Assembly (NCBI GenBank): GCA_016933575.1
Contig: JAFGAR010000163.1
Coordinates: 1 to 54,728 of the forward strand
Direction of reading: 5' to 3'
Length of the DNA: 54,728 nt
Source of the DNA: Candidatus Thorarchaeota archaeon
GTDB lineage: Archaea > Asgardarchaeota > Thorarchaeia > Thorarchaeales > Thorarchaeaceae
Shown here: piece by piece, positions 9,648 to 28,016 of the stretch
How the letters are laid out: every line of letters starts with the position of its first letter
How positions within the stretch are numbered: the first letter of the stretch is position 1
Notes under the pieces: generated by a model
What the model saw: the letters and a program-made list of their open reading frames with translations, nothing else
Told to the model about the DNA's origin: nothing
Databases searched by the model: none
Translations under genes and position numbers: made by a program

Positions 9648-10916
9648 TCATTCATCTAACTTGTCCATATTCGACAAATCCTGTGCCAGCTTCTCCTGCG
9701 TGCTCCAAGAACCAGTCAAATCTTTCTTTCTTGATAACTCTCCAAGCAGTCTTCGACTCTCTGCATCCAGCTTACTTGGGGGCATATTCTCATACGCACT
9801 TCCAGGTAGAGGCATGAATACATGTCCGTGGGTCTTAGCTCCCATCTCAACCAGAGTATAACAGAGTTCTACGTTCTTATGCAAATCATCTATTGTTTCT
9901 CCAGGGAGCCCAAAGATCATATCCACATGGGGTGTAAAGCCTGTATCCAATGCTATTCGTACTGCTTCAATTCCCTGTTCCACAGTATGGTGCCTGTTTG
10001 CTAGCTTCAGGACTTTGTCGCTACTTGATTGAAGGCCAATTTGCAGAGTCGCGTTAGCGACATACCCTCGTAACAGATCAAGAATCGGCTTTGTGACAAA
10101 TTCAGGTCTAACTTCTGATGGAAATGATCCAAAATAGATCTCCTCAAGTCCCTCAACCTTACTAGTTTCCCTCAATAATCTCTCGAGTTTTTCAGGTTCT
10201 GGCTTTCTACCTATTCCTCCATAGGAGAGAGCGTTTGGTGAAAGAAACCATGTACGTGTAAACCCGCTCTTCTCCACAGCAAGTTTCAACCATTTTGTAA
10301 TCGATTCGACTGATCGGTGTCTGACCTTACACCCAGTAAGAACTGGAGTGCAACAGAATTTACATTGAAAGGGACACCCTCTTGTGACCTCGACAGGTCC
10401 CACTATGTTCATACCCAGAGCAAATGGTGGATAGTCATCTAGATTCACAATGGGCAGTTCTTTTGGAAGTGGAAAGTGGTCCGAATCTTTTCCTACTACT
10501 CCCTCAATATTCAAAGGGTCATATCCATTCATTAGAGACCATACCAATTCTGGGAAGATGCGCTCGCCTTCTCCAATGACGACATAATCGAATCCATTTT
10601 TGAGCAACTCTTTGGGTCGAATCGTAGCATGCGCACCACCGCCAATTATGACAACATCGTTTCCGAATCTCTTTCTTGCCTGTTGGACTTCTCGATACAC
10701 TCTACGCCATTGTGTACTCATGACAGAGTGAGCAATAATTGTGGGTCCATTCTTTATACTCTCTTCAATGACATCTATCGCTATTTCTATAGGTGCCTCT
10801 ATCTGAATATCTGCCAGTCTTTGGTCAGCTTCAAGACTACCTATTAGAGCTGCCACACTATACCGAGATGATGGATGCGTTCTAAAGATGAGGGATTGCG
10901 GGTACAATTGGAACAC
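9648..10916 (-). CDS. B12-binding-domain radical SAM protein (TIGR04013-like)
   Basis: GGAHAT/IGEGE B12-like domain, EVTRGCPFQCKFC, FGSFPSEVRPE, DMIFGLPGE, HVFMPLPGS. Confidence 0.82.
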   Translation of the reverse strand: MFQLYPQSLIFRTHPSSRYSVAALIGSLEADQRLADIQIEAPIEIAIDVIEESIKNGPTIIAHSVMSTQWRRVYREVQQARKRFGNDVVIIGGGAHATIRPKELLKNGFDYVVIGEGERIFPELVWSLMNGYDPLNIEGVVGKDSDHFPLPKELPIVNLDDYPPFALGMNIVGPVEVTRGCPFQCKFCCTPVLTGCKVRHRSVESITKWLKLAVEKSGFTRTWFLSPNALSYGGIGRKPEPEKLERLLRETSKVEGLEEIYFGSFPSEVRPEFVTKPILDLLRGYVANATLQIGLQSSSDKVLKLANRHHTVEQGIEAVRIALDTGFTPHVDMIFGLPGETIDDLHKNVELCYTLVEMGAKTHGHVFMPLPGSAYENMPPSKLDAESRRLLGELSRKKDLTGSWSTQEKLAQDLSNMDKLDE

Positions 10917-17039: not shown

Positions 17040-17115
17040 ATTAGAGTAATTATCGAAAATATAGGAGTACTTCAATGCTCTTGTATAATCAGAATATATA
17101 CGGGAGCAATGCATC

Positions 17116-19401
17116 ATGGAGCGTTCGATACAGCTTGATGAACCAGAGAGTCAAGACTTTAAGGAAAGTCTAAATCCTCTCAAAAGGAATGGCCCTGAGT
17201 CGGGTGACGTTGAATTGACTATAGAAAGTCTATCTGAGATCCCTGGTGTTGGAGAGAAAATTCAGAAGGCGTTAATTGATCACTTTGGAAGCGAAGCTGT
17301 TGCACTAAAGGTGATACGCGATTCGAGAGTAGATTTAGTAGCCGCTGTGCCGGGAATCGGATCCCGCCAGGCAGTCAATCTGGTGAAGGGCGCCTTTGAA
17401 CAGCAATTTGGTGTAAATTCCAACTTGTTGCTCAGGAGCGTGGATATCCGCAAGATATTCGAGAGTGTACTGGAGATTATGCAGAGGTATGCCAATACGA
17501 CCTATGCAAAAGATAAGCTCTTTCTCTACTTTCCGCTTCCTCCTGAGAAGCTCGATACGATTCTAGAGCGACAGAGGTACTTTGCGGATGCTGCTAAGAT
17601 GGCAAGTAGTCTATCTTCTGACCAGCGTGAAACATTGAAGAGTCTATTAACGCAGATAAGGGGTCTCTATAGGAGGGCAAAACCTCGTCGAATTGAGGGA
17701 CGAGTCATAATCACCAATGATGATAAGGTCTTTGACAAGCTAGTTACTGAAGGCATTGACAAATGGTGTCCTGTCTATGTTCTCTCGGATGGAGAGAGTG
17801 GTGCTGACTATGCTCAAGGTTATGACCTAGTCCTCTTTATTTCTCCCTTGGGTATGTTTGATGACTCGATGGACATGTTAGACAATGTAGAAACCCTTGG
17901 CAAAGACTGGTCTCTTGAGGATATTTTACCTGAACAAACTGTAAGCTTCTATGCTCGTAACTATCGAGTCATTGATGCCTCATGTAAATTGGCTGAGTTA
18001 TTTGGTGGCCTCCCCTCAAATGAGTCTATGAATAGTTTCAAAGAGGGTTTAGACTTCGAAGGACTCAGCAATGTTGGGGAGATTCTAAAGAATCTGGATG
18101 AGAATGGTGATCTAGCTCAGGGAATAAATGCAGATATTGACAGGTATCGAAAAGCAGTCAAGGTATTTCCTACAGCAATCGCTGAAACAGAAGCCTGGCT
18201 GAATGAAGAGATTACAGGTCGGATTTCTAAAAGCCATGTAACTCTTGGAGGACAACAGATTATCACAATCCTTCAATCTGCTGATATGGATGGAACTGAG
18301 AGTAGCTCACTTAGGAACATGCTCCCTGCTGAAATCGTTGAAACATTCACATCTACTATTCAGGAAGCCGAGGATAAGCTTGCTCAGATGCTGGGACTGA
18401 CACCACGAGAAGCTGACTGGGTGACAGGTGTAATCAGTGAAGAGATAGCCCTCCCAGCAAAATTAGTCCCTGCACAGATCAATGACTTGGAGGACAAATT
18501 ACGTAGACTCTTTGCTGATAAGCAATTCAGTCTTATCAAAAAGATTGCAAATGATCTTGATAGATTGAAAGATGTTGTATCCAATGCAGTTCAAACACTA
18601 CTTGAGTTTGATCTGTTTCTCTCTGTTGGTCTATTTTCCCATGATTATTACCTTCAGACACCCAACATCTCTTTGGAGTACTCAGGAGTAGGGGTACAGA
18701 GCGCAAACAACATATTTCTGACAGAGAGTTACTTGAAAGGAAAACACGGGAAAGTCCAACCTATCGACTATTGCATTGGGAAGACACCATTTCAACCAGA
18801 AGGAACGCATGGTGAGAATTGTGCTCTGTTATCGGGTGCAAATAGTGGTGGAAAGACTACCACAATCCAGACCTTAGCGCAAATCGTCACAATGGCACAA
18901 TCCGGATTTCCAGTACCAGCTAAGACTGCATATCTCCCTGTCTTTGAGGAGCTCTATTTCTTCTACAAGAGTAGGGGAATGGTTAGTGCTGGAGCGTTTG
19001 AAACCACACTCAAACAGTTCGCTGAGATTGTAGTATCTGAGAAATCAAAGCTAGCCCTCTTTGATGAAGTTGAAGCAATTACAGAGCCCGGGAGCGCTGC
19101 AAATGTGATTGCTGGTCTAATCGAGATACTTCAGAGTGACCCTCGGACCTCTACGGTAATCTGTAGTCACCTAGCTAAAGAGATTCAAGAAGTCACCTCC
19201 GTACCTATCCGAATTGATGGCATTGAAGCTCGTGGCCTCGACGAAAATCTCGACCTTGTTGTAGATAGAACTCCTCGATTTGGAGTACTGGCAAGAAGTA
19301 CCCCTGAGCTCATCGTAGAGAGGCTCTCGAAACTAACAAAAGGTCCTAAGAAGGCAGTCTATGAGAAGATCTTGGAGAATCTCAACAGAGCGCGAAAGTG
19401 A
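17116..19401 (+). CDS. Archaeal MutS2/MutS5-like ATPase with N-terminal helix-hairpin-helix
   Basis: IPGVGEK and VPGIG HhH motifs, Walker A GANSGGKT, AGAFE, Walker B LFDEVE, CSHL. No mismatch-recognition or Smr domain seen. Confidence 0.85.
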   Translation: MERSIQLDEPESQDFKESLNPLKRNGPESGDVELTIESLSEIPGVGEKIQKALIDHFGSEAVALKVIRDSRVDLVAAVPGIGSRQAVNLVKGAFEQQFGVNSNLLLRSVDIRKIFESVLEIMQRYANTTYAKDKLFLYFPLPPEKLDTILERQRYFADAAKMASSLSSDQRETLKSLLTQIRGLYRRAKPRRIEGRVIITNDDKVFDKLVTEGIDKWCPVYVLSDGESGADYAQGYDLVLFISPLGMFDDSMDMLDNVETLGKDWSLEDILPEQTVSFYARNYRVIDASCKLAELFGGLPSNESMNSFKEGLDFEGLSNVGEILKNLDENGDLAQGINADIDRYRKAVKVFPTAIAETEAWLNEEITGRISKSHVTLGGQQIITILQSADMDGTESSSLRNMLPAEIVETFTSTIQEAEDKLAQMLGLTPREADWVTGVISEEIALPAKLVPAQINDLEDKLRRLFADKQFSLIKKIANDLDRLKDVVSNAVQTLLEFDLFLSVGLFSHDYYLQTPNISLEYSGVGVQSANNIFLTESYLKGKHGKVQPIDYCIGKTPFQPEGTHGENCALLSGANSGGKTTTIQTLAQIVTMAQSGFPVPAKTAYLPVFEELYFFYKSRGMVSAGAFETTLKQFAEIVVSEKSKLALFDEVEAITEPGSAANVIAGLIEILQSDPRTSTVICSHLAKEIQEVTSVPIRIDGIEARGLDENLDLVVDRTPRFGVLARSTPELIVERLSKLTKGPKKAVYEKILENLNRARK

Positions 19402-21578: not shown

Positions 21579-22667
21579 GTGGTAGGAACCAACTCCTTTC
21601 CAAGACTTACTCTTAATATGGGTATCTTTCTAGTGGGTCTACTTCTCTTTAGCAGTGTGTTTCTTAGATCTGGGAATTATTTAGGTCCCTACACTTATTA
21701 TAACGCAACTCCAATAACTCAGGGCGCAACTCTTACTGAAGAAACACCAGCCCTCTGGTTCAATTCTAGCTATATGACCGCAAAAATTGTAATCACAGGT
21801 CTCAGCACAAACAACACCCCCGTCACCCTAGTAGTTGGCGAGTCTGCCCAAGTTCTCTACAAGGCTACAAATATCACTGGAATGACTGGATTCTCTGTGG
21901 ATGTTCAAATAGGTGGAGCTGTTGAAAATTGGGTCGGAGTGATACGTCAGGAATCTGACGCAGAAGTTACAGTTCAGATAGTTCGTTATTTCATATACTA
22001 TTATACACCACCTCCTGCAGCACCGCCTCCTTATATCAACCTACTAGTATTTGTAGGACCCATTCTATGCGTATTCGCTGTTATCAGGATGATGCAGCTC
22101 ACATCAAAGTTCGAATACCCCCAGAATTCAGGTACAAAGATTTTCGCAGTCATTCTATTGTGTCTTATTGGCGTGAGTAGCTGCTTCTCGCTGCTAAATG
22201 GTCAAGTGAAGGGAGATTTTATCCCTGTGAGTACTACAGTAATCCTGCCAAGTGACAACTATTCTCTAACAATAAACACGACAAATCCTTCTGCGCTACT
22301 CAACATGTCCGAGTTCTATCCTGAGGATGCGATTGGGACAAGCTATAGAATCTACTCCCTTGTATCAGATCATTATCCAATCCTTGTCACAATCTCAAAT
22401 GGAACCATATCGGAACTTGTACTTGAATCAGAGAGCAAGTACAATCCTTGGTCATTTACTATCCCTCGAAGCTCGAGCAGTTCAATTTACATTAATATTG
22501 AACGTGGCAGCATTGATACAAAAATTGCTCTAGCTATTGAGAGGAGATATCAGGTTCCACTACCAAAGATGGACATCACATTTCCAGCAATCGAGTTTGC
22601 TCTTGGAATCTCAATGATAGTTATTGGTTTTGTAATTGTCTTTAAAATCGATAGACACTCTGAATAG
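21579..22667 (+). CDS. Hypothetical membrane protein, internally duplicated (TM - beta domain - TM) x2
   Basis: Four hydrophobic segments and two similar soluble domains with several N-x-S/T sequons; GAGGT RBS before GTG. Confidence 0.7.
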   Translation: MVGTNSFPRLTLNMGIFLVGLLLFSSVFLRSGNYLGPYTYYNATPITQGATLTEETPALWFNSSYMTAKIVITGLSTNNTPVTLVVGESAQVLYKATNITGMTGFSVDVQIGGAVENWVGVIRQESDAEVTVQIVRYFIYYYTPPPAAPPPYINLLVFVGPILCVFAVIRMMQLTSKFEYPQNSGTKIFAVILLCLIGVSSCFSLLNGQVKGDFIPVSTTVILPSDNYSLTINTTNPSALLNMSEFYPEDAIGTSYRIYSLVSDHYPILVTISNGTISELVLESESKYNPWSFTIPRSSSSSIYINIERGSIDTKIALAIERRYQVPLPKMDITFPAIEFALGISMIVIGFVIVFKIDRHSE

Positions 22668-22714
22668 ACCTGACTTCTGGGTTTCCTCAAAGACGATCGT
22701 GCAGGTGAAATCTG

Positions 22715-23371
22715 TTATTCCGTTGAATAGGTCCCTGACAGCGTACCTTCAATGTACTCTATTCGCTTAGTAAATCTCTTCTTGATATATTCATCAATCT
22801 CAGGCAACTCAGAGAGTCTTCGTAAGATGTCAGAAAATGAGGAATCCTTCCTGACTGCTTCAAGGTCCGCATTTCTCTTCTGCAGCATTGATTTCCTATA
22901 CGTATGAATGCCAATGATACCTAAAATTGGAGTGAGAATATACACAGGTATAATTAGAAACGCCAATGTGATGAGTGCTCCTTCAAAAATCACGAAATAA
23001 GATAGGACTGTAGTAGTTAGACCCAATGCTATGGCAGCTCCATATTGAGCGGCTTCAGCATCTGAGAGCGGCTTGTCTATTATTTGTTTTACTTCCATAT
23101 ATGACAGAAGTTCGGAAGGGCTCAACGTATCGACCTCCCAGGTCTCGAGAAGGACAATACTCTCTTCGCTCTCGTCAACCACATCAAATGGATTAGTGTC
23201 CACATCCCCCCACTGGACACGTTTCACTTCACACTCAGCATATTTTGGATCATTCTGAAGGGTCTTCTCTAATTCCTTACATTTTTCATCTCTATAGTAA
23301 ATTCCATACTCTACTTCAGATGCATCAATTTCGACTTTCACTCTTGTATCACGTACTTGTGACAAGACCAT
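22715..23371 (-). CDS. Membrane protein resembling a degenerate M48 (HtpX/Ste24-like) peptidase without HExxH
   Basis: Two TM helices. LSPSELLSY, QKRNADLEA and ILRRL...KRIEYI match M48 segments in order, but no zinc ligands are present. The ORF is solid; the family assignment is tentative. Confidence 0.5.
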   Translation of the reverse strand: MVLSQVRDTRVKVEIDASEVEYGIYYRDEKCKELEKTLQNDPKYAECEVKRVQWGDVDTNPFDVVDESEESIVLLETWEVDTLSPSELLSYMEVKQIIDKPLSDAEAAQYGAAIALGLTTTVLSYFVIFEGALITLAFLIIPVYILTPILGIIGIHTYRKSMLQKRNADLEAVRKDSSFSDILRRLSELPEIDEYIKKRFTKRIEYIEGTLSGTYSTE

Positions 23372-23463
23372 GAAGCAAGTTATACTTTCGCGATAATCCC
23401 CGAGAAGTGTCGCGTAACCACTCTCTCAAGAGTATTGATGATATAGCCCACATCTGTTGAGTG

Positions 23464-23512
23464 AAAACTAGAAGAAAGGGATGAAGTCGCTGAGAGATTG
23501 CATCCCTCAGCG
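23464..23512 (-). terminator. Hairpin plus pyrimidine/T-tract closing the peptide operon
   Basis: Minus strand CGCTGAGGGAT-gca-ATCTCTCAGCG (23488-23512) overlaps the TGA stop and is followed by CCCTTTCTTCTAGTTTT. Confidence 0.65.
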
Positions 23513-23596
23513 TCTGTAAGTGTAAGCGTAAGTGATCGCATCAGTAGAGATCTTCTTGTCAGAAGCCTTGATTCTCATATCCTTAACTAGAGCCAT
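23507..23596 (-). CDS. Micro-peptide 2, MALVKDMRIKASDKKISTDAITYAYTYRR (29 aa)
   Basis: Translated by hand (below the ORF-track cutoff). GGAGGT RBS at 23606-23611, 9 nt before ATG. Clear paralog of the upstream peptide. Confidence 0.8.
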   Translation of the reverse strand: MALVKDMRIKASDKKISTDAITYAYTYRR

Positions 23597-23603
23597 TGAT
23601 GAT

Positions 23604-23705
23604 TTACCTCCGGTACAAGTATGCGTATGCTACAGCCTCTGTGGAGAGGGGATTGCGTTTCTGCTTCAGTTCAGAGTTGGTTCGGTTGTTCGTTGTTAGA
23701 GCCAT
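23604..23705 (-). CDS. Micro-peptide 1, MALTTNNRTNSELKQKRNPLSTEAVAYAYLYRR (33 aa)
   Basis: Translated by hand. TATA box about 33-40 nt upstream. Shares MAL and ST.A..YAY.YRR-stop with peptide 2. Confidence 0.8.
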   Translation of the reverse strand: MALTTNNRTNSELKQKRNPLSTEAVAYAYLYRR

Positions 23706-23737
23706 AATAGTTCACAAGAGATACTGCTCAGAATTAG

Positions 23738-23792
23738 TATATATAGCAGAGGCACTTTTCAGGGACACAACTTGAAGTCACATCTTGTGACT
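23738..23792 (-). promoter_or_regulatory. TATA box and 7-3-7 palindromic operator for the peptide operon
   Basis: TATATATA at 23738-23745; perfect inverted repeat AGTCACA-tct-TGTGACT at 23776-23792. Confidence 0.6.
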
Positions 23793-23933
23793 AGCTAGAG
23801 AGGGCTCTGGGAGCATACCATCTAGCAAACTCATTATTAGAAGTCCAAATTGACATTAATGAAGAATAAAGCGCGGTCGGGAGTTTTACATCTCATCTTC
23901 AACAGAAATTCCATGTTCTACCTGGGAAAACCC

Positions 23934-24236
23934 TCAATGTTTTTCAACAAATATCACTAGCATTATAATTCCCATAAAGAGGACAACTCGTCCTAAGTAG
24001 TATCTCAAGTACAAATCGTATTCTGACCCACTTGTGAATGTGAAAATAAATAGAAAAAGAAACATGTCTGATATCTGCCACATTATCAAGGATACAAGAA
24101 ATTCAATAACTGATACCAATCTGTTCCAGATGTCGTCAGCATTTCTCTTGTAAGTAAATATCATGATTACAACTATGAGAACCGAAATTCCAATGAGTAA
24201 GCCATGTGGGTCTATCCCATGACCATACAATTGCAT
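23934..24236 (-). CDS. Small 3-TM membrane protein (paralog A)
   Basis: Three hydrophobic helices; aligns without gaps to the neighbouring ORF. Confidence 0.75.
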   Translation of the reverse strand: MQLYGHGIDPHGLLIGISVLIVVIMIFTYKRNADDIWNRLVSVIEFLVSLIMWQISDMFLFLFIFTFTSGSEYDLYLRYYLGRVVLFMGIIMLVIFVEKH

Positions 24237-24331
24237 GTTTTGATTCCCTTCAATCTCTTTGACAGTAGGAACTTTCTAGGTGTATTCTCCCTTTTCACCT
24301 CGCTATATATCATACCTGCATCACAGATTGT

Positions 24332-24697
24332 CTATGAGATTATAGCCTGAGTTTTTTCATGTTTTGTCTTGGTGAGTTCACGGCGCATCTCAATATATAC
24401 CAGAAGGATGCAAAATCCCAGGTACGATATGATTTTTGCAGCCTGTATAACGATAGGTTTGATATCTATTGGTAAGCTAATATGTGTGTAGACGATTAAG
24501 TCTGTTAATAGTACCAAAAATAGCCACGATACTGTAAACACAACAACTTCAATTGATGCAATAATCCAGTAACGGGGTCTGGTTGTTCGGTTCGTATAAC
24601 CAAGTACTACAACCAATAGCACTAAGATTACAATTGCAGTCCCGAGTTCGAGGGGACTTAGAGGATAATCCGGTTCAATCGTTGGAATCTCTTGCAT
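24332..24697 (-). CDS. Small 3-TM membrane protein (paralog B)
   Basis: Start reassigned to ATG 24697 (MQEIP), after GAGGTA; the longer ORF-track start runs into the tRNA. Three TM helices. Confidence 0.75.
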   Translation of the reverse strand: MQEIPTIEPDYPLSPLELGTAIVILVLLVVVLGYTNRTTRPRYWIIASIEVVVFTVSWLFLVLLTDLIVYTHISLPIDIKPIVIQAAKIISYLGFCILLVYIEMRRELTKTKHEKTQAIIS

Positions 24698-24854
24698 TGA
24701 CTTACCTCTCTCATTTTTACTACCATCCCGGCCAGCGATGTTCTGACTAAGATGTGCACCGTAGAATGGATACCAAAGAACCTTGAGAACTTTGCTGATA
24801 CTATGCTGAGTAGTACCTATTGTTGCAGAGAAATAATTAACTATAGAAAAGAAG

Positions 24855-25078
24855 CGCCATCGGGAGGGCTCGAACCTTTGGCCGCGCACCACGAAGTGTA
24901 GTGCACTCCGACCATTCGTCACGCACCACGAAACGTGATGCGTTACAACTGTCTGGCTCTCAACCAGTCGATTGAAAGATAACAGGCTTTAGCGGTATAA
25001 CGTGAAGCACGTATATGCTGTCGCTATCGATTGTGTGTTTCTGAAGAAACACACAGCTACCGACTGAGCCACGATGGC
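24855..25078 (-). tRNA. tRNA-Asn(GUU) with five BHB introns (22/23, 28/29, 37/38, 43/44, 50/51)
   Basis: Introns 25026-25056 (31 nt), 24989-25019 (31), 24951-24979 (29), 24915-24944 (30) and 24878-24907 (30). Removing them gives GCCATCG TG GCTC AGTCGGTA GAGC G ACAGC CTGTTAA GTTGT TGGTC GGAGG TTCGAGC CCTCC CGATGGC G, a 73-nt cloverleaf with G73. Anticodon GTT at 24981-24983. CCA is not encoded. Confidence 0.9.
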
Positions 25079-25105
25079 TTAATTGGGCAATCGGTGTTGA
25101 AAGCA

Positions 25106-25116
25106 ATATTAACGTT
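25106..25116 (-). promoter_or_regulatory. Putative tRNA promoter (AACGTTAATAT)
   Basis: TATA-like 11-mer 28-38 nt upstream of tRNA-Asn; the identical 11-mer lies upstream of tRNA-Ile2. Confidence 0.6.
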
Positions 25117-25142
25117 GCTGTTCAGTCCAATGTTCGAAATCG

Positions 25143-26072
25143 CTATTGCAGAATGCATTCTGGTCTGAGATAATAGAGTTCTCCTGCTCTGCGCAGAAAT
25201 ACCATACCTCCATGTTCTAATGCTGCTCTGTACGCTTCTGCAATATTAGTATTAGAGTCAATGACAAAGCCGCGTTTCATTATTGGTCGCAATCGGTCTT
25301 GTAGTGGGTCTAGGGATATCGAATCATGGTCGAGAAAGCTATCAAGAGCGAGACAGAAGAAAATATTCAACAGAGCCTGATTCAAGAAATAGATGTTATC
25401 GTCGGAACCTGCAACGACAATTGGTTCTGGTTGTTTTACACTACGATTTTCTACGAGTCGAATCGCATCACTCAATGTGTCAGAAGGATCTAGGACATCA
25501 CTGATCTTAGAAGCTAGAAGATATGCTGATGCTTTATACAAATCATCGAAATGTCTTCTCCACATTATTACGGAGTACGCAAAGAGGTTCATCGCTAGAT
25601 TACCATATTCTCCCGTACCATAGATACCAAGAGTCTTTCGGCCGATGATTTTGTACTCATTCATATGATCAATGGTGCTTGAAACATTCTTCTGTTTCGT
25701 GTTCAAGAAATCTGCAAGATCCTGTGTTGTAAACAGACCTGGTTTCCAGAGTTTGTTGATGATGAAGAGCTTTCCTGCATTATTCAGATTCTTGAAGACA
25801 TTATCTACATCAGGTTCACCCCCATAGAACTCAAGTAATTTCTGATAAATTGGTTGAGCTCGGCCAAAGCCGATGTTGAATATGATGAACTTCTTTGGTA
25901 TTTCATTTCCCGCGACAAGTGAGTTTCTGATGTTCTTTGAATAGGTGCTTATCTCTTCGAGTGTCTTTCTGAATATGGATGGTGGTGCTTTCTCCAGATA
26001 TCTTATGATCTCAAAGAATTCCGTCTTTAGCTTATTATCCAACTCAATGTCTATTATTTCGGACATCATCAA
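25143..26072 (-). CDS. Putative transcription regulator: winged HTH plus degenerate CBS-pair
   Basis: FTTQDLADFLNTKQKNVSSTIDHMNEYKII wHTH. LDPSDTLSDAIRLV...PIVV and IDSNTNIAEAYRAALEH are CBS-like repeats. Confidence 0.6.
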   Translation of the reverse strand: MMMSEIIDIELDNKLKTEFFEIIRYLEKAPPSIFRKTLEEISTYSKNIRNSLVAGNEIPKKFIIFNIGFGRAQPIYQKLLEFYGGEPDVDNVFKNLNNAGKLFIINKLWKPGLFTTQDLADFLNTKQKNVSSTIDHMNEYKIIGRKTLGIYGTGEYGNLAMNLFAYSVIMWRRHFDDLYKASAYLLASKISDVLDPSDTLSDAIRLVENRSVKQPEPIVVAGSDDNIYFLNQALLNIFFCLALDSFLDHDSISLDPLQDRLRPIMKRGFVIDSNTNIAEAYRAALEHGGMVFLRRAGELYYLRPECILQ

Positions 26073-26090
26073 TCAAACATCCTTTTAATT

Positions 26091-26144
26091 ATCGTGATTT
26101 TTCATTTTCACGATTAAATAGTGTGGAAGTCTTATAAGATTTCC
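26091..26144. promoter_or_regulatory. Divergent promoter with two palindromes
   Basis: ATCGTGA-N10-TCACGAT (26091-26114) and GGAAGTCTTATAAGATTTCC (26125-26144), which has a perfect TCTTATAAGA TATA-like core. Confidence 0.6.
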
Positions 26145-26160
26145 TTATTGTTTCAAAACA

Positions 26161-27132
26161 GTGGTTAGAGGAGAATTTGTTGGTTTGATTCGAGAAGCAG
26201 CCATAAATGAACACAAATCTAAGTATGAAAAGTGGATCTTTGATACTACACTTGATTACCAGGAGTATTCTCTTTCAAAAGGACTTGGAAAGCGAATCAG
26301 ATATCTCTCAGAGGAGCCACTATTAGTAGTACTAGGCGCGGGTATGTCTGAGACCACTGGGCCATTCTATAAAGAGTGGGAACAATACAAAGAGGATGTG
26401 ACTTCGGAGGATCCTGAGTCACTAACTGGATTCTGTGATTATTTTGAATATGGTGGTATTGAAGCAATTCCAAAGAGTGGAATCGAAGTCATCCCTAATC
26501 TTGTGAGAATGGGAAAGATGCCCGTATTTCTCGTATTCAACTATAATTGCCACCTAGAACTCTGTCTGGTCCTGTGTGATGTTGGATATGAATCGATTTC
26601 ATACAATGGAAAGAACACCTTTGAGGTCACTCGAGTAGGAAGACCAAAATGCACAATCTTCAAACCTCATGGGTCTTCAAGACTGATTGATAGACCGACC
26701 CAGATAATTTGGCCTGACTGGCCATCAAAGAAAGGTGAACCTGAAAATCGAGGACAATTCGAACTTCTGAATCATAAGATTCGGGAGAAGAAGATCAAGA
26801 ATAGCGCGATTCTTGGGTACTCTGGAAATTGGGATCCATACATGAAGAAACATATGCAGAGAATCTCAGAAAAATGCTCAATGATTCAATTTGGTCTGCC
26901 ACGTAATGTGGCTAGACCTCCTGCCACAACAAAATGGGGCATCTTAGAGAAGAATGGATTCATCACCGATTTTGACAAGGGTGGTACTGATTTTCTATAT
27001 GGTCTTTCAAAGCTAAATGGATTATCAAGACAATGCACAACGAAACAAAAGAGCCCTCTATCGACCCTATCTGAAAAGCTTGAACAGATTGATATTGAAA
27101 CAACATCGCTTTCTATCGAATCTACCCATTGA
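26161..27132 (+). CDS. SIR2-like (SIR2_2) domain protein, putative defence NADase
   Basis: VVLGAGMS, VFNYN (TNYD-like), IFKPHGS, ILGYSGNWD in canonical order. Start may be TTG 26185. Confidence 0.75.
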   Translation: MVRGEFVGLIREAAINEHKSKYEKWIFDTTLDYQEYSLSKGLGKRIRYLSEEPLLVVLGAGMSETTGPFYKEWEQYKEDVTSEDPESLTGFCDYFEYGGIEAIPKSGIEVIPNLVRMGKMPVFLVFNYNCHLELCLVLCDVGYESISYNGKNTFEVTRVGRPKCTIFKPHGSSRLIDRPTQIIWPDWPSKKGEPENRGQFELLNHKIREKKIKNSAILGYSGNWDPYMKKHMQRISEKCSMIQFGLPRNVARPPATTKWGILEKNGFITDFDKGGTDFLYGLSKLNGLSRQCTTKQKSPLSTLSEKLEQIDIETTSLSIESTH

Positions 27133-27272
27133 TATCTGATAGTCTGGAAGAATGAAGATATCCGCCTAGACTACATTATAACATTGGCATTACCTTCCTG
27201 CCAATTCTGTTCTATCAATACTACTAAGAGCCTTGATCACTCTACTCTACATTGGTTTCTAGGGTGATTTGA

Positions 27273-28016
27273 GTGAAAGATGCGATCCAAGAGTCTAGAA
27301 GAATAATTTCAGAAGCCAGAGAGCGGGGTGTGACCCTTCGACTGATAGGCGGTCTTGCCTTTCGGCAACATTGCAATGAACTTGCTTTCTGCGAGCGTGA
27401 ATATGGCGATATAGACCTAGTTGGTCTGTCGCACGAATCCTCTCGAATAATTAATACTCTGACAGCCCTAGGATACAAAGAAAATATCACCTACACGCTT
27501 GCCTCTGGGGGAAATCGTCTCTTATTTGAGAAACCGGACTCACAAGACCATGTTGACATCTTTCTCGACAAATTACGAATGGAGCACGATATCACTCTAA
27601 GACATAGACTCGACATTGAAGAATTCACAATCTCTGTGAGTGACCTCTTAATATGCAAGTTGATCATTATGAATCTGAACGAGAAGGACTATCGTGATAT
27701 CATCACCATTGTAAAGGACCTCACTCTTGGAGAAGTTGACGCTCCATCTGTGATTAATACTAAGTATCTAGCTAAGATTTGCTCCAGTAGATGGGGTCTC
27801 TACTACGATGTCATCGCATCTCTTGATAAATGTATAAAATTTCTAGACTATTATCAACTTGATGAAGTAGTAGCTAGAGAGGTTTTAAAGCGGCTTGCAC
27901 TGATTAAGCAACGTATTGTTGACCATCCGAAATCTTTACGATGGAAACTCCGGAATCATGTTGGAAAACGGCTTCAATGGCGAAAAATAGTTGAGCTTGA
28001 ACATATTGCAAGATAA
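27273..28016 (+). CDS. Nucleotidyltransferase-superfamily protein
   Basis: LRLIGGLAF...REYGDIDLV (GG plus DxD), HVDIF, DLL..KL, KDYRD. Confidence 0.72.
   Translation: MKDAIQESRRIISEARERGVTLRLIGGLAFRQHCNELAFCEREYGDIDLVGLSHESSRIINTLTALGYKENITYTLASGGNRLLFEKPDSQDHVDIFLDKLRMEHDITLRHRLDIEEFTISVSDLLICKLIIMNLNEKDYRDIITIVKDLTLGEVDAPSVINTKYLAKICSSRWGLYYDVIASLDKCIKFLDYYQLDEVVAREVLKRLALIKQRIVDHPKSLRWKLRNHVGKRLQWRKIVELEHIAR

Follow-up and report, generated by a model that had tools for sequence, protein, structure and literature searches.

Two very short open reading frames lying in tandem on the minus strand of this stretch of DNA (54,728 nt in full, here called the window) raise the question of whether they are genes at all and, if they are, in what process their products take part. 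Annotation largely misses micro-proteins of fewer than 35 residues, and almost nothing is known of those made by Asgard archaea, which among prokaryotes stand closest to eukaryotes. The preliminary description of this DNA had reported the two micro-ORFs together with a palindrome, a TATA box, a GGAGGT sequence embedded in the Arg-Arg-stop codons of the first ORF, and a hairpin with a T-rich tract, and we located every one of these elements where it had been placed (Table 1).

Table 1. Positions in the window of the micro-protein gene pair and its associated signals, in the order in which they would be transcribed.
Feature	Position	Strand	Remarks
Perfect 7-3-7 palindrome AGTCACA-AGA-TGTGACT, candidate transcription-factor operator	23776-23792	minus	No variation in GTCAC/TGTGAC columns across 28 aligned promoters
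Third half-site TTGTGTCCC (consensus TGTGACC), between palindrome and TATA box	23762-23770	minus	GTG and CC columns invariant
TATA box TATATATA, archaeal promoter, 32 nt 5' of ATG	23738-23745	minus	Invariant in 28/28 promoters
TGTGAA box, at or near predicted transcription start, resembling an operator half-site	23711-23716	minus	GTGAA invariant
Peptide 1 gene (type A, 33 aa, stop TAA)	23604-23705	minus	Net charge +4, pI 10.2
GGAGGT, Shine-Dalgarno site for peptide 2	23606-23611	minus	Overlaps last Arg codon and TAA of peptide 1, 9 nt before second ATG
Peptide 2 gene (type B, 29 aa, stop TGA)	23507-23596	minus	Net charge +4, pI 9.9
11-bp hairpin, 3-nt loop	23488-23512	minus	Starts in last Arg codon and TGA of peptide 2
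T-rich tract (CTTTCTTCTAGTTTTC), likely archaeal termination signal (putative function)	23465-23480	minus	3' of hairpin

The two ORFs would encode peptides of 3.9 and 3.4 kDa, for which a single pairwise comparison gave 14/33 identity (E=9e-8). Both start with MAL and end in the core [LI]ST[ED]A[VI]xYAYxYRR, their final residues being L-Y-R-R and T-Y-R-R, respectively, and both are matched by a profile of the family described below (E=2e-16 and 3e-12 per genome). Some family members end in hydrophobic-Tyr-Arg-stop and recall HbYX, the C-terminal docking motif of the proteasome activators PAN and Cdc48, in which a Tyr or Phe preceded by a hydrophobic residue is penultimate. We rejected this likeness as a resemblance only, because the Tyr-Arg-Arg ends of both window peptides do not have Tyr in that place and Tyr is penultimate in just 13 of 69 family genes. 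The PAN and Cdc48-like proteins of the source organism itself end in ..MYC, ..SYI and ..MFA.

To evaluate coding content we analyzed 72 distinct nucleotide versions of the peptide genes from the source genome and its relatives. The invariant Ser is specified by TCC (14), TCA (20), TCG (17), TCT (17) and AGC (1), the invariant Thr and Ala by all four of their synonymous codons in nearly even usage, and all three stop codons occur. For pairs with 70-85% nucleotide identity, picked on that identity alone, differences at codon positions 1, 2 and 3 numbered 150, 96 and 399 in the core and 96, 99 and 181 in the first nine codons, and the pooled dN/dS was about 0.34, the pairs being non-independent. 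Length differences between copies are in frame, and the frame and stop position are retained in about 480 matches. Across the family conservation is found in the C-terminal 14 residues and in an N-terminal MA[LF], which is conserved at the protein level even in internal cistrons (GCT, GCA and GCG for Ala; six Leu codons), and the middle varies in both sequence and length. The preliminary description had argued for selection on the protein from the differing codons of conserved residues (RR as CGG AGG versus AGA CGC, ST as TCC ACA versus TCT ACT); those codons are correct, and the argument is borne out by the synonymous codon use, the third-position excess and the dN/dS value. The alternative that the module is a conserved non-coding RNA or promoter repeat and that its ORFs arose by accident gains from the promoter and leader being better conserved at the nucleotide level than the ORFs. 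It is nevertheless extremely improbable, and we consider it effectively refuted by the third-position excess, the full synonymous codon use, the in-frame indels and the persistence of frame and stop, and it is countered also by Rfam, a search of which across the window returned a single tRNA elsewhere and nothing at the gene pair. As judged by this codon evidence, both ORFs are genuine protein-coding genes for cationic, hydrophilic micro-proteins. Two metatranscriptome runs from the study that produced the source metagenome yielded no contig on the locus, which is evidence neither way.

The gene pair is one of several copies. In the source genome (3.47 Mb in 215 contigs, of which the window is contig C153) a module of about 300 bp is present at about seven loci with 13 peptide ORFs, and several contigs break within module copies, as a near-identical repeat would predict. 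The family was found in 24/24 genomes of the same genus; by profile search, 74/85 genomes from the GTDB family carried it, as did 15/17 genera in the order, with the qualification that the presence/absence profile scored as peptide-negative five genomes that carry diverged members. In a phylum-wide draw of genomes, 68/76 from the same GTDB family were positive versus 0/224 across 29 other families. A motif search across genomes, which the preliminary description had proposed, established that homologs exist: when 185,579 species genomes were searched with the strict DNA pattern ST[DE]A..YAY.YRR-stop, no more than 16 loci matched, which puts the motif well beyond chance, and every one of them lies in a MAG that bears the name Candidatus Thorarchaeota or "uncultured archaeon."

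A profile search of 1.84 billion representative proteins recovered about 50 short proteins, along with spurious repeat proteins. Some family members have been gene-called in metagenomes, none of them bearing a name. The spurious matches are long proteins with repeats of the ISTHALTWSAT type (P0034, P0047 and probably P0001 and P0011, the last two placed here on the basis of their many matched stretches). We also discounted six apparent fusions, of 69-90 aa, between a type-B peptide and a second peptide family (P0009, P0017, P0019, P0024, P0030, and P0058), since the two that were checked, P0009 and P0019, translate only if TAG is read as Gln and are gene-calling artefacts, not Rosetta-stone fusions. 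Pfam, NCBIfam and PDB sequences gave zero matches even at E values up to 10 or 1, the ESM Atlas no usable match, and the literature no paper containing the family motif strings and none joining archaeal leader peptide, MFS transporter and ribosome stalling. The earlier statement that the peptides belong to no described family thus holds for Pfam, NCBIfam, PDB and the literature, and we assign them to an undescribed, multi-copy micro-protein family that is restricted to one GTDB family of Thorarchaeota.

Family members are organized in arrays. A type-A peptide (MAL[TA]TN.R..) is the first in 44 of 57 distinct arrays and is followed after 4-8 nt by a type-B (MALAK..) or type-C (..AYFRR) peptide. 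Many relatives, and the source genome's own copy on contig C139, have a second, unrelated micro-ORF family 3' of the array, the products of which are mildly acidic and end in ..EEVL.LEAT-stop; the window pair is without it.

The conservation of the array promoter exceeds that of the genes it precedes. Across 28 promoters drawn from several genera, 45 columns of the approximately 95 nt 5' of the first ATG never vary, and conservation ends sharply just 5' of the palindrome. Genome-wide, perfect palindromic sites of the operator pattern are almost confined to the peptide arrays. A promoter more conserved than its genes, with so abrupt a 5' limit, points to a dedicated transcription factor that would recognize GTCACA/TGTGAC. 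Candidates for this regulator were considered and set aside: the divergent genes at the locus type with a pump (see below) encode proteins of 168 aa (no Pfam match; weak wHTH, E=0.2) and 119 aa (TFIIB-type Zn ribbon and weak wHTH), and an adjoining SMC operon may own them; the 309-aa gene of the window at 25143-26072 gave weak HTH hints only. The position of the TATA box implies a leader of only about 10 nt, taking the transcription start from the usual archaeal spacing.

The last codon is AGG in 54 of 69 family genes, with AGG or CGG before it, and the Shine-Dalgarno site built into the Arg-Arg-stop codons couples the translation of peptide 2 to that of peptide 1. The Arg-Arg end is retained where no downstream cistron needs such a site (AGA CGC in peptide 2), and it is therefore a feature of the protein as well as, elsewhere, a ribosome-binding site. 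The hairpin region folded at -23.6 kcal/mol (91-nt stretch, z=-3.06), and the hairpin at 23488-23512 was absent from the output of a bacterial-type terminator scan. An equally placed hairpin with a different stem sequence was present at each of five other loci (L001, L046, L048, L053, and L054; single folds), so that the window pair and five related arrays terminate in a hairpin and T-tract. Loop lengths vary among four of the terminator hairpins. Taken from its family-specific promoter to its hairpin and T-tract, the window pair reads as one short bicistronic unit.

The genomic neighborhoods of 43 arrays form a handful of syntenic locus types among unrelated housekeeping genes (SMC/AAA, profilin, transketolase/GNAT, desulfoferrodoxin, F420 ligase, TrmB regulator, and ABC ATPase), and the family occupies 5-7 such unrelated loci per genome. 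Because the sites are syntenic across species, we regard the arrays as stably inherited chromosomal loci and not as mobile elements. One possible partner in the window, a downstream 218-aa membrane protein, was rejected since an array or operator lies within 1.5 kb at 0/9 orthologous loci in relatives.

These neighborhoods bear directly on the suggestion of the preliminary description that the peptides resemble RiPP precursors (YxY cross-linking), and on the reading built on it, in which the Tyr-rich C-terminal core would be modified and the product exported by an MFS transporter. Short, precursor-like tandem genes with a conserved Tyr-rich C-terminus are what such a system would have, and MFS exporters are present in some RiPP clusters, such as those for microcin C and pantocin A. 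However, among four ORFs on either side of the 43 arrays, clustered and with representatives scanned against Pfam, no maturase gene (radical SAM, P450, YcaO, ATP-grasp, lanthionine synthetase, or peptidase) was recurrent. Nor do the peptides have a conserved leader region, their conserved parts being the core and MA[LF], and a family dispersed over unrelated housekeeping loci is not expected of RiPP precursors. We consider this suggestion unsupported and very improbable.

The only recurrent same-strand partner of the 43 arrays is an MFS transporter gene, which belongs to one of two lineages. The first, present in 44/85 genomes of the GTDB family, is an MFS_3 pump of the DHA3/Mef-EntS-like type, which comes closest to TIGR00900 (DHA3), Mef and EntS. 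In 10 fetched loci its gene starts 4-5 nt past a type-C (..YFRR-stop) peptide, and in 5/5 genomes that had been scored as peptide-negative the same promoter and diverged peptides still lie 5' of it. The second is a clade-specific MFS_1 lineage found in 73/85 genomes with one to seven matches each, and it lies 0.2-2.3 kb downstream of peptide matches on the same strand in about 20 genomes of three genera. In the source genome an MFS gene lies directly 3' at three of the seven loci, and there are about 13 peptide genes versus about six array-type MFS genes, most arrays not being beside a pump; none of the window genes neighboring the pair encodes one. Counts of peptide and MFS matches rise together (rho 0.70; 0.68 for genus means), a descriptive relationship that is confounded by relatedness and by poorer detection in distant genera. 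The promoter of the arrays also drives MFS pumps of two lineages, often within one operon with the peptides. The preliminary description had also offered a signaling or regulatory role; its regulatory sense stays open, on the basis of the promoter and operons that the peptides have in common with the pumps.

The pump loci provide the main rival to a function of the peptides as free proteins, namely that they are cis-acting leader peptides in which the core, at the stop codon, pauses or arrests the ribosome, perhaps in response to a small molecule, and gates termination-reinitiation or read-through into the pump gene in the manner of mef(E) or TnaC/SpeFL. At these loci the order is promoter, micro-ORF(s), a conserved spacer with inverted repeats, micro-ORF, 4-5 nt, and the MFS gene, and this layout is conserved across genera. 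The spacer (150-266 nt) contains an apparent ORF (M..SERLI.WL.SDP..) that we dismissed, because L024 and L027 do not conserve its frame but do keep the TGGTCAC repeats, as expected of a nucleotide-level element. The strongest conservation of the peptides is in the last 14 codons, their lengths of 27-36 aa presumably fit the ribosomal exit tunnel, and a ribosome held at the stop codon of peptide 2 would melt the terminator hairpin since that hairpin starts inside the last codon and stop. In addition, the pump is nearest to the DHA3, Mef and EntS group, and the DHA3 pump gene mef(E) is under leader-peptide and attenuation control (PMC4335068). The mef(E)/mel system and related resistance genes likewise have micro-ORF(s) between the promoter and the pump gene and inverted repeats in the leader (PMC4335068). 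They differ in that the Thorarchaeota peptides are 27-36 aa long and conserved at both ends, that stand-alone terminated units occur, that the last peptide abuts the pump start with no attenuator between, and that the host is archaeal.

While a cis-acting role fits the pump-type arrays, it does not fit the stand-alone ones. A short ORF between a promoter and a regulated gene is found at other loci of the family and not at the window pair, which, like many arrays, has no target in cis, being followed by a terminator, a convergent gene or a tRNA-like sequence. At the C139-type locus, in the source genome and its relatives, the first ORF of at least 80 aa past the array is on the opposite strand. 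Since the window pair is closed by a terminator and the C139-type arrays face an opposite-strand ORF, we infer that the products of these arrays act in trans. The retention of stand-alone arrays at syntenic sites across species, and the protein-level conservation of MA[LF] in internal cistrons, also speak against leader peptides, and we know of no arrest peptides from archaea. Overall, we give cis-acting leaders a low probability. A related proposal, that the peptides are nascent-peptide sensors whose core beside the stop arrests the archaeal ribosome and gates the efflux pumps, the stand-alone copies being extra sensors or decoys, is lower still in our estimation.

Properties of the peptides themselves were used to assess roles in trans. 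Family members carry a net charge of +4 to +9 with a pI of about 10.5 and are hydrophilic, Tyr-rich and without a membrane segment. The GRAVY values of the window pair are -0.96 and -0.51 (family means -0.5 to -0.7), and the core has a helical hydrophobic moment of 0.07-0.23. AlphaFold2 prediction for peptide 1 with the family alignment placed helices at residues 6-16 and 19-31, with a pLDDT of about 84 for the core and a mean of 68. In this model peptide 1 folds into a helical hairpin: ST[DE] would N-cap the second helix, A24xxxA28-Y29 would form a small-residue packing face, and the end would be rich in Tyr and Arg.

One role that these properties might suggest is that of exported leaderless peptides, bacteriocin-like, PSM-like or otherwise extracellular, that lack a signal and for which the MFS protein is the exporter, confers immunity, or both. 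Two to three tandem, coupled paralogs, each an approximately 30-aa cationic peptide with its own start, are encoded at many loci per genome, their middles are hypervariable and transporters belong to the regulon. In these respects (tandem paralogous cationic peptides of about 30 aa, no signal or leader, and a transporter in the system) the family resembles aureocin A70, enterocin L50 and garvicin KS of Firmicutes. However, the Thorarchaeota peptides are hydrophilic, and their GRAVY values and hydrophobic moments are not those of the amphipathic or hydrophobic membrane-active helix of leaderless bacteriocins. There is also no recurrent immunity-like gene and no ABC exporter; the transporter is of the MFS type and is present at some loci only. 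To our knowledge, the known leaderless bacteriocins use ABC exporters and the substrates of MFS transporters are small molecules. Finally, bacteriocins are patchy accessory traits, unlike this family, which is near-universal and syntenic in its clade. Export is thus unlikely, if slightly more probable than cis-acting leaders.

A second possibility in trans is that the peptides are made in abundance under stress and, being basic, with an Arg/Lys-rich middle and a Tyr/Arg end, bind to nucleic acids or to ribosomes; they would be co-induced with the pumps by the same factor but make no direct contact with them. The charge, pI, hydrophilicity and Tyr content of the family would suit such binding, the consensus TATA box and the many gene copies suggest a high output, and most arrays are not adjacent to pumps. 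However, nothing among the known nucleic-acid-binding or ribosomal proteins resembles the peptides, and this explanation leaves the translational coupling to two independent MFS lineages unaccounted for. We consider it improbable, placing it between the cis-acting leaders and the nascent-peptide sensors.

The most likely explanation, which we hold tentatively, is that the peptides work in trans as cationic micro-proteins with a helical-hairpin fold, belong to a pump-containing regulon and probably modulate its pumps. By analogy with SgrT/PtsG, MntS/MntP and AcrZ/AcrB, their job would be in the pathway of the co-regulated pumps: a transcription factor binding GTCACA/TGTGAC would switch on peptides and pumps together, and the peptides, as free micro-proteins acting in trans, would modulate or partner the pumps from the cytoplasmic side, at the pump itself or at the membrane. 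These bacterial systems, along with MgtS, similarly have proteins of <50 aa with a transporter in the same regulon or operon (PMC10710835), and the Thorarchaeota family also comprises small proteins, their translation being deduced from the codons, that share a regulon or operon with a transporter. A helical-hairpin model exists for SgrT, an inhibitor of a transporter, and AcrZ and MntS are co-regulated with a pump gene to which their own genes are not linked (PMC10710835); peptide 1 is likewise modelled as a hairpin. The bacterial proteins differ from the Thorarchaeota family in that the latter is archaeal, multi-copy, always arranged as tandem paralog pairs and without a membrane segment, and there is no sequence similarity between them, contact with the pump being putative here. 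Several observations count against pump modulation. The peptides are hydrophilic and, in contrast to AcrZ or MgtS, lack a membrane segment; most arrays are not beside a pump, and peptide genes outnumber array-type MFS genes. The tight 5' placement before the pumps and the structured spacers also fit cis-acting leader ORFs, and the mean pLDDT of the model is only 68. A complex prediction for the DHA3-like MFS protein and its coupled type-C peptide gave no answer (score 0.00, with no controls run).

In summary, small proteins tied to transporters and multi-peptide operons are known; what is new is a lineage-specific Asgard micro-protein family with a regulon of its own. To the earlier description our analysis adds the phylum-wide distribution, the diverged members before the DHA3-like pump, the link to a second MFS lineage and the helical-hairpin model. 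A clade-wide family that is maintained by selection, has a shared promoter and operator, and is genetically linked in a conserved manner to two MFS lineages constitutes a defined regulon, which is approachable by synthesis or heterologous expression with no need to culture the organism. If the peptides modulate pumps, the control of transporters by small proteins would be extended to archaea. If they are instead leader peptides, control by nascent peptides would have its first example among archaea, and that within the lineage nearest to eukaryotes.

Many of the arrays carry a second family of micro-ORFs, which starts 0–6 nt after the last of the peptides ending in a YxYR-type core. These ORFs encode 18–40 aa, are mildly acidic and, behind a variable N-terminal part, share a conserved ending of the form ..[TS]xEEVL[ML][LW]EAT-stop; the copy of the array in the window has none. 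Since the preceding stop codon is mostly TAG and the second-family ORF is often in frame with the preceding peptide, gene callers that read TAG as glutamine predict false fusions of the two.

Arrays of the pump type, in which an MFS efflux pump gene lies directly behind a family peptide, contain a spacer of 150–266 nt. In this spacer TGGTCA[CT] occurs three times as a direct repeat, at a spacing of about 11 nt, CCTGTGACC faces these direct repeats, and TCTGAG/CTCAGA form inverted repeats; all of these elements are kept whatever the reading frame. The spacer may serve as an operator inside the array or as an RNA element, and degenerate family peptides are also hidden within it. Elsewhere on contig C138 of the source genome is a single divergent family member, upstream of which is another small ORF ending in ..SLYYEYTHRGE, and this type of pair recurs in loci L052 and L066.

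Table. Locations of array-associated and promoter-like features (C, contig of source genome G000; L, fetched locus).
Feature	Location	Strand	Remark
Pump-type array spacer	L004:104-369 (C138)
Matching pump-type spacers	L011, L021, L024, L027, L034, L038, L043
Divergent family member	C138:67932-68018	+	ends ..AYAWLYREL
Second-family micro-ORF	L003:9693-9806 (C139)	-
Further second-family micro-ORFs	L040, L041, L044, L045, L049-L051, L055, L058, L060, L064, L065, L067
Tandem profilin-family genes	L064:6110-6493 and relatives		PF00235, E=1e-5
Palindrome, TTGTGAC half-site and TATA, as at peptide arrays	C101 ~17108-17122 (L095)		palindrome perfect
Weaker version of this layout	C78 ~74117 (L096)

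Around the pair in the window are seven consecutive ORFs of 100–362 aa (21579-28016), several of them membrane proteins, and Pfam matched none of them at E<=0.01. The ORF of 309 aa (25143-26072, minus strand) gave weak HTH-like hints (MarR/Crp, E ~0.1). At another array (contig C21; L001 ~9690-9740), opposite-strand sequence directly 3' of the array and immediately behind the terminator resembles the 3' half of a tRNA. Because ARAGORN found no tRNA there, this sequence may represent a tRNA gene that is split or contains an intron. One stand-alone array type has tandem profilin-family genes 1.2–1.6 kb upstream, profilin being a eukaryote-signature protein.

The promoter layout of the arrays also occurs upstream of a gene for a 417-aa bactofilin-domain protein (C101) and, at a site within chance expectation, of one for a 366-aa membrane protein with no Pfam match (C78). 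Both genes are possible further members of the regulon of peptide arrays and pumps.

Contigs C21/C16, C139, C138, C45 and C51 break off within promoter and first-peptide sequences that are nearly identical from copy to copy, and neighbor orthology joins C45 with C138 and C51 with C139. The identity of the promoters between C45 and C51, and of the first peptides between C138 and C139, suggests gene conversion among the family loci of this genome.
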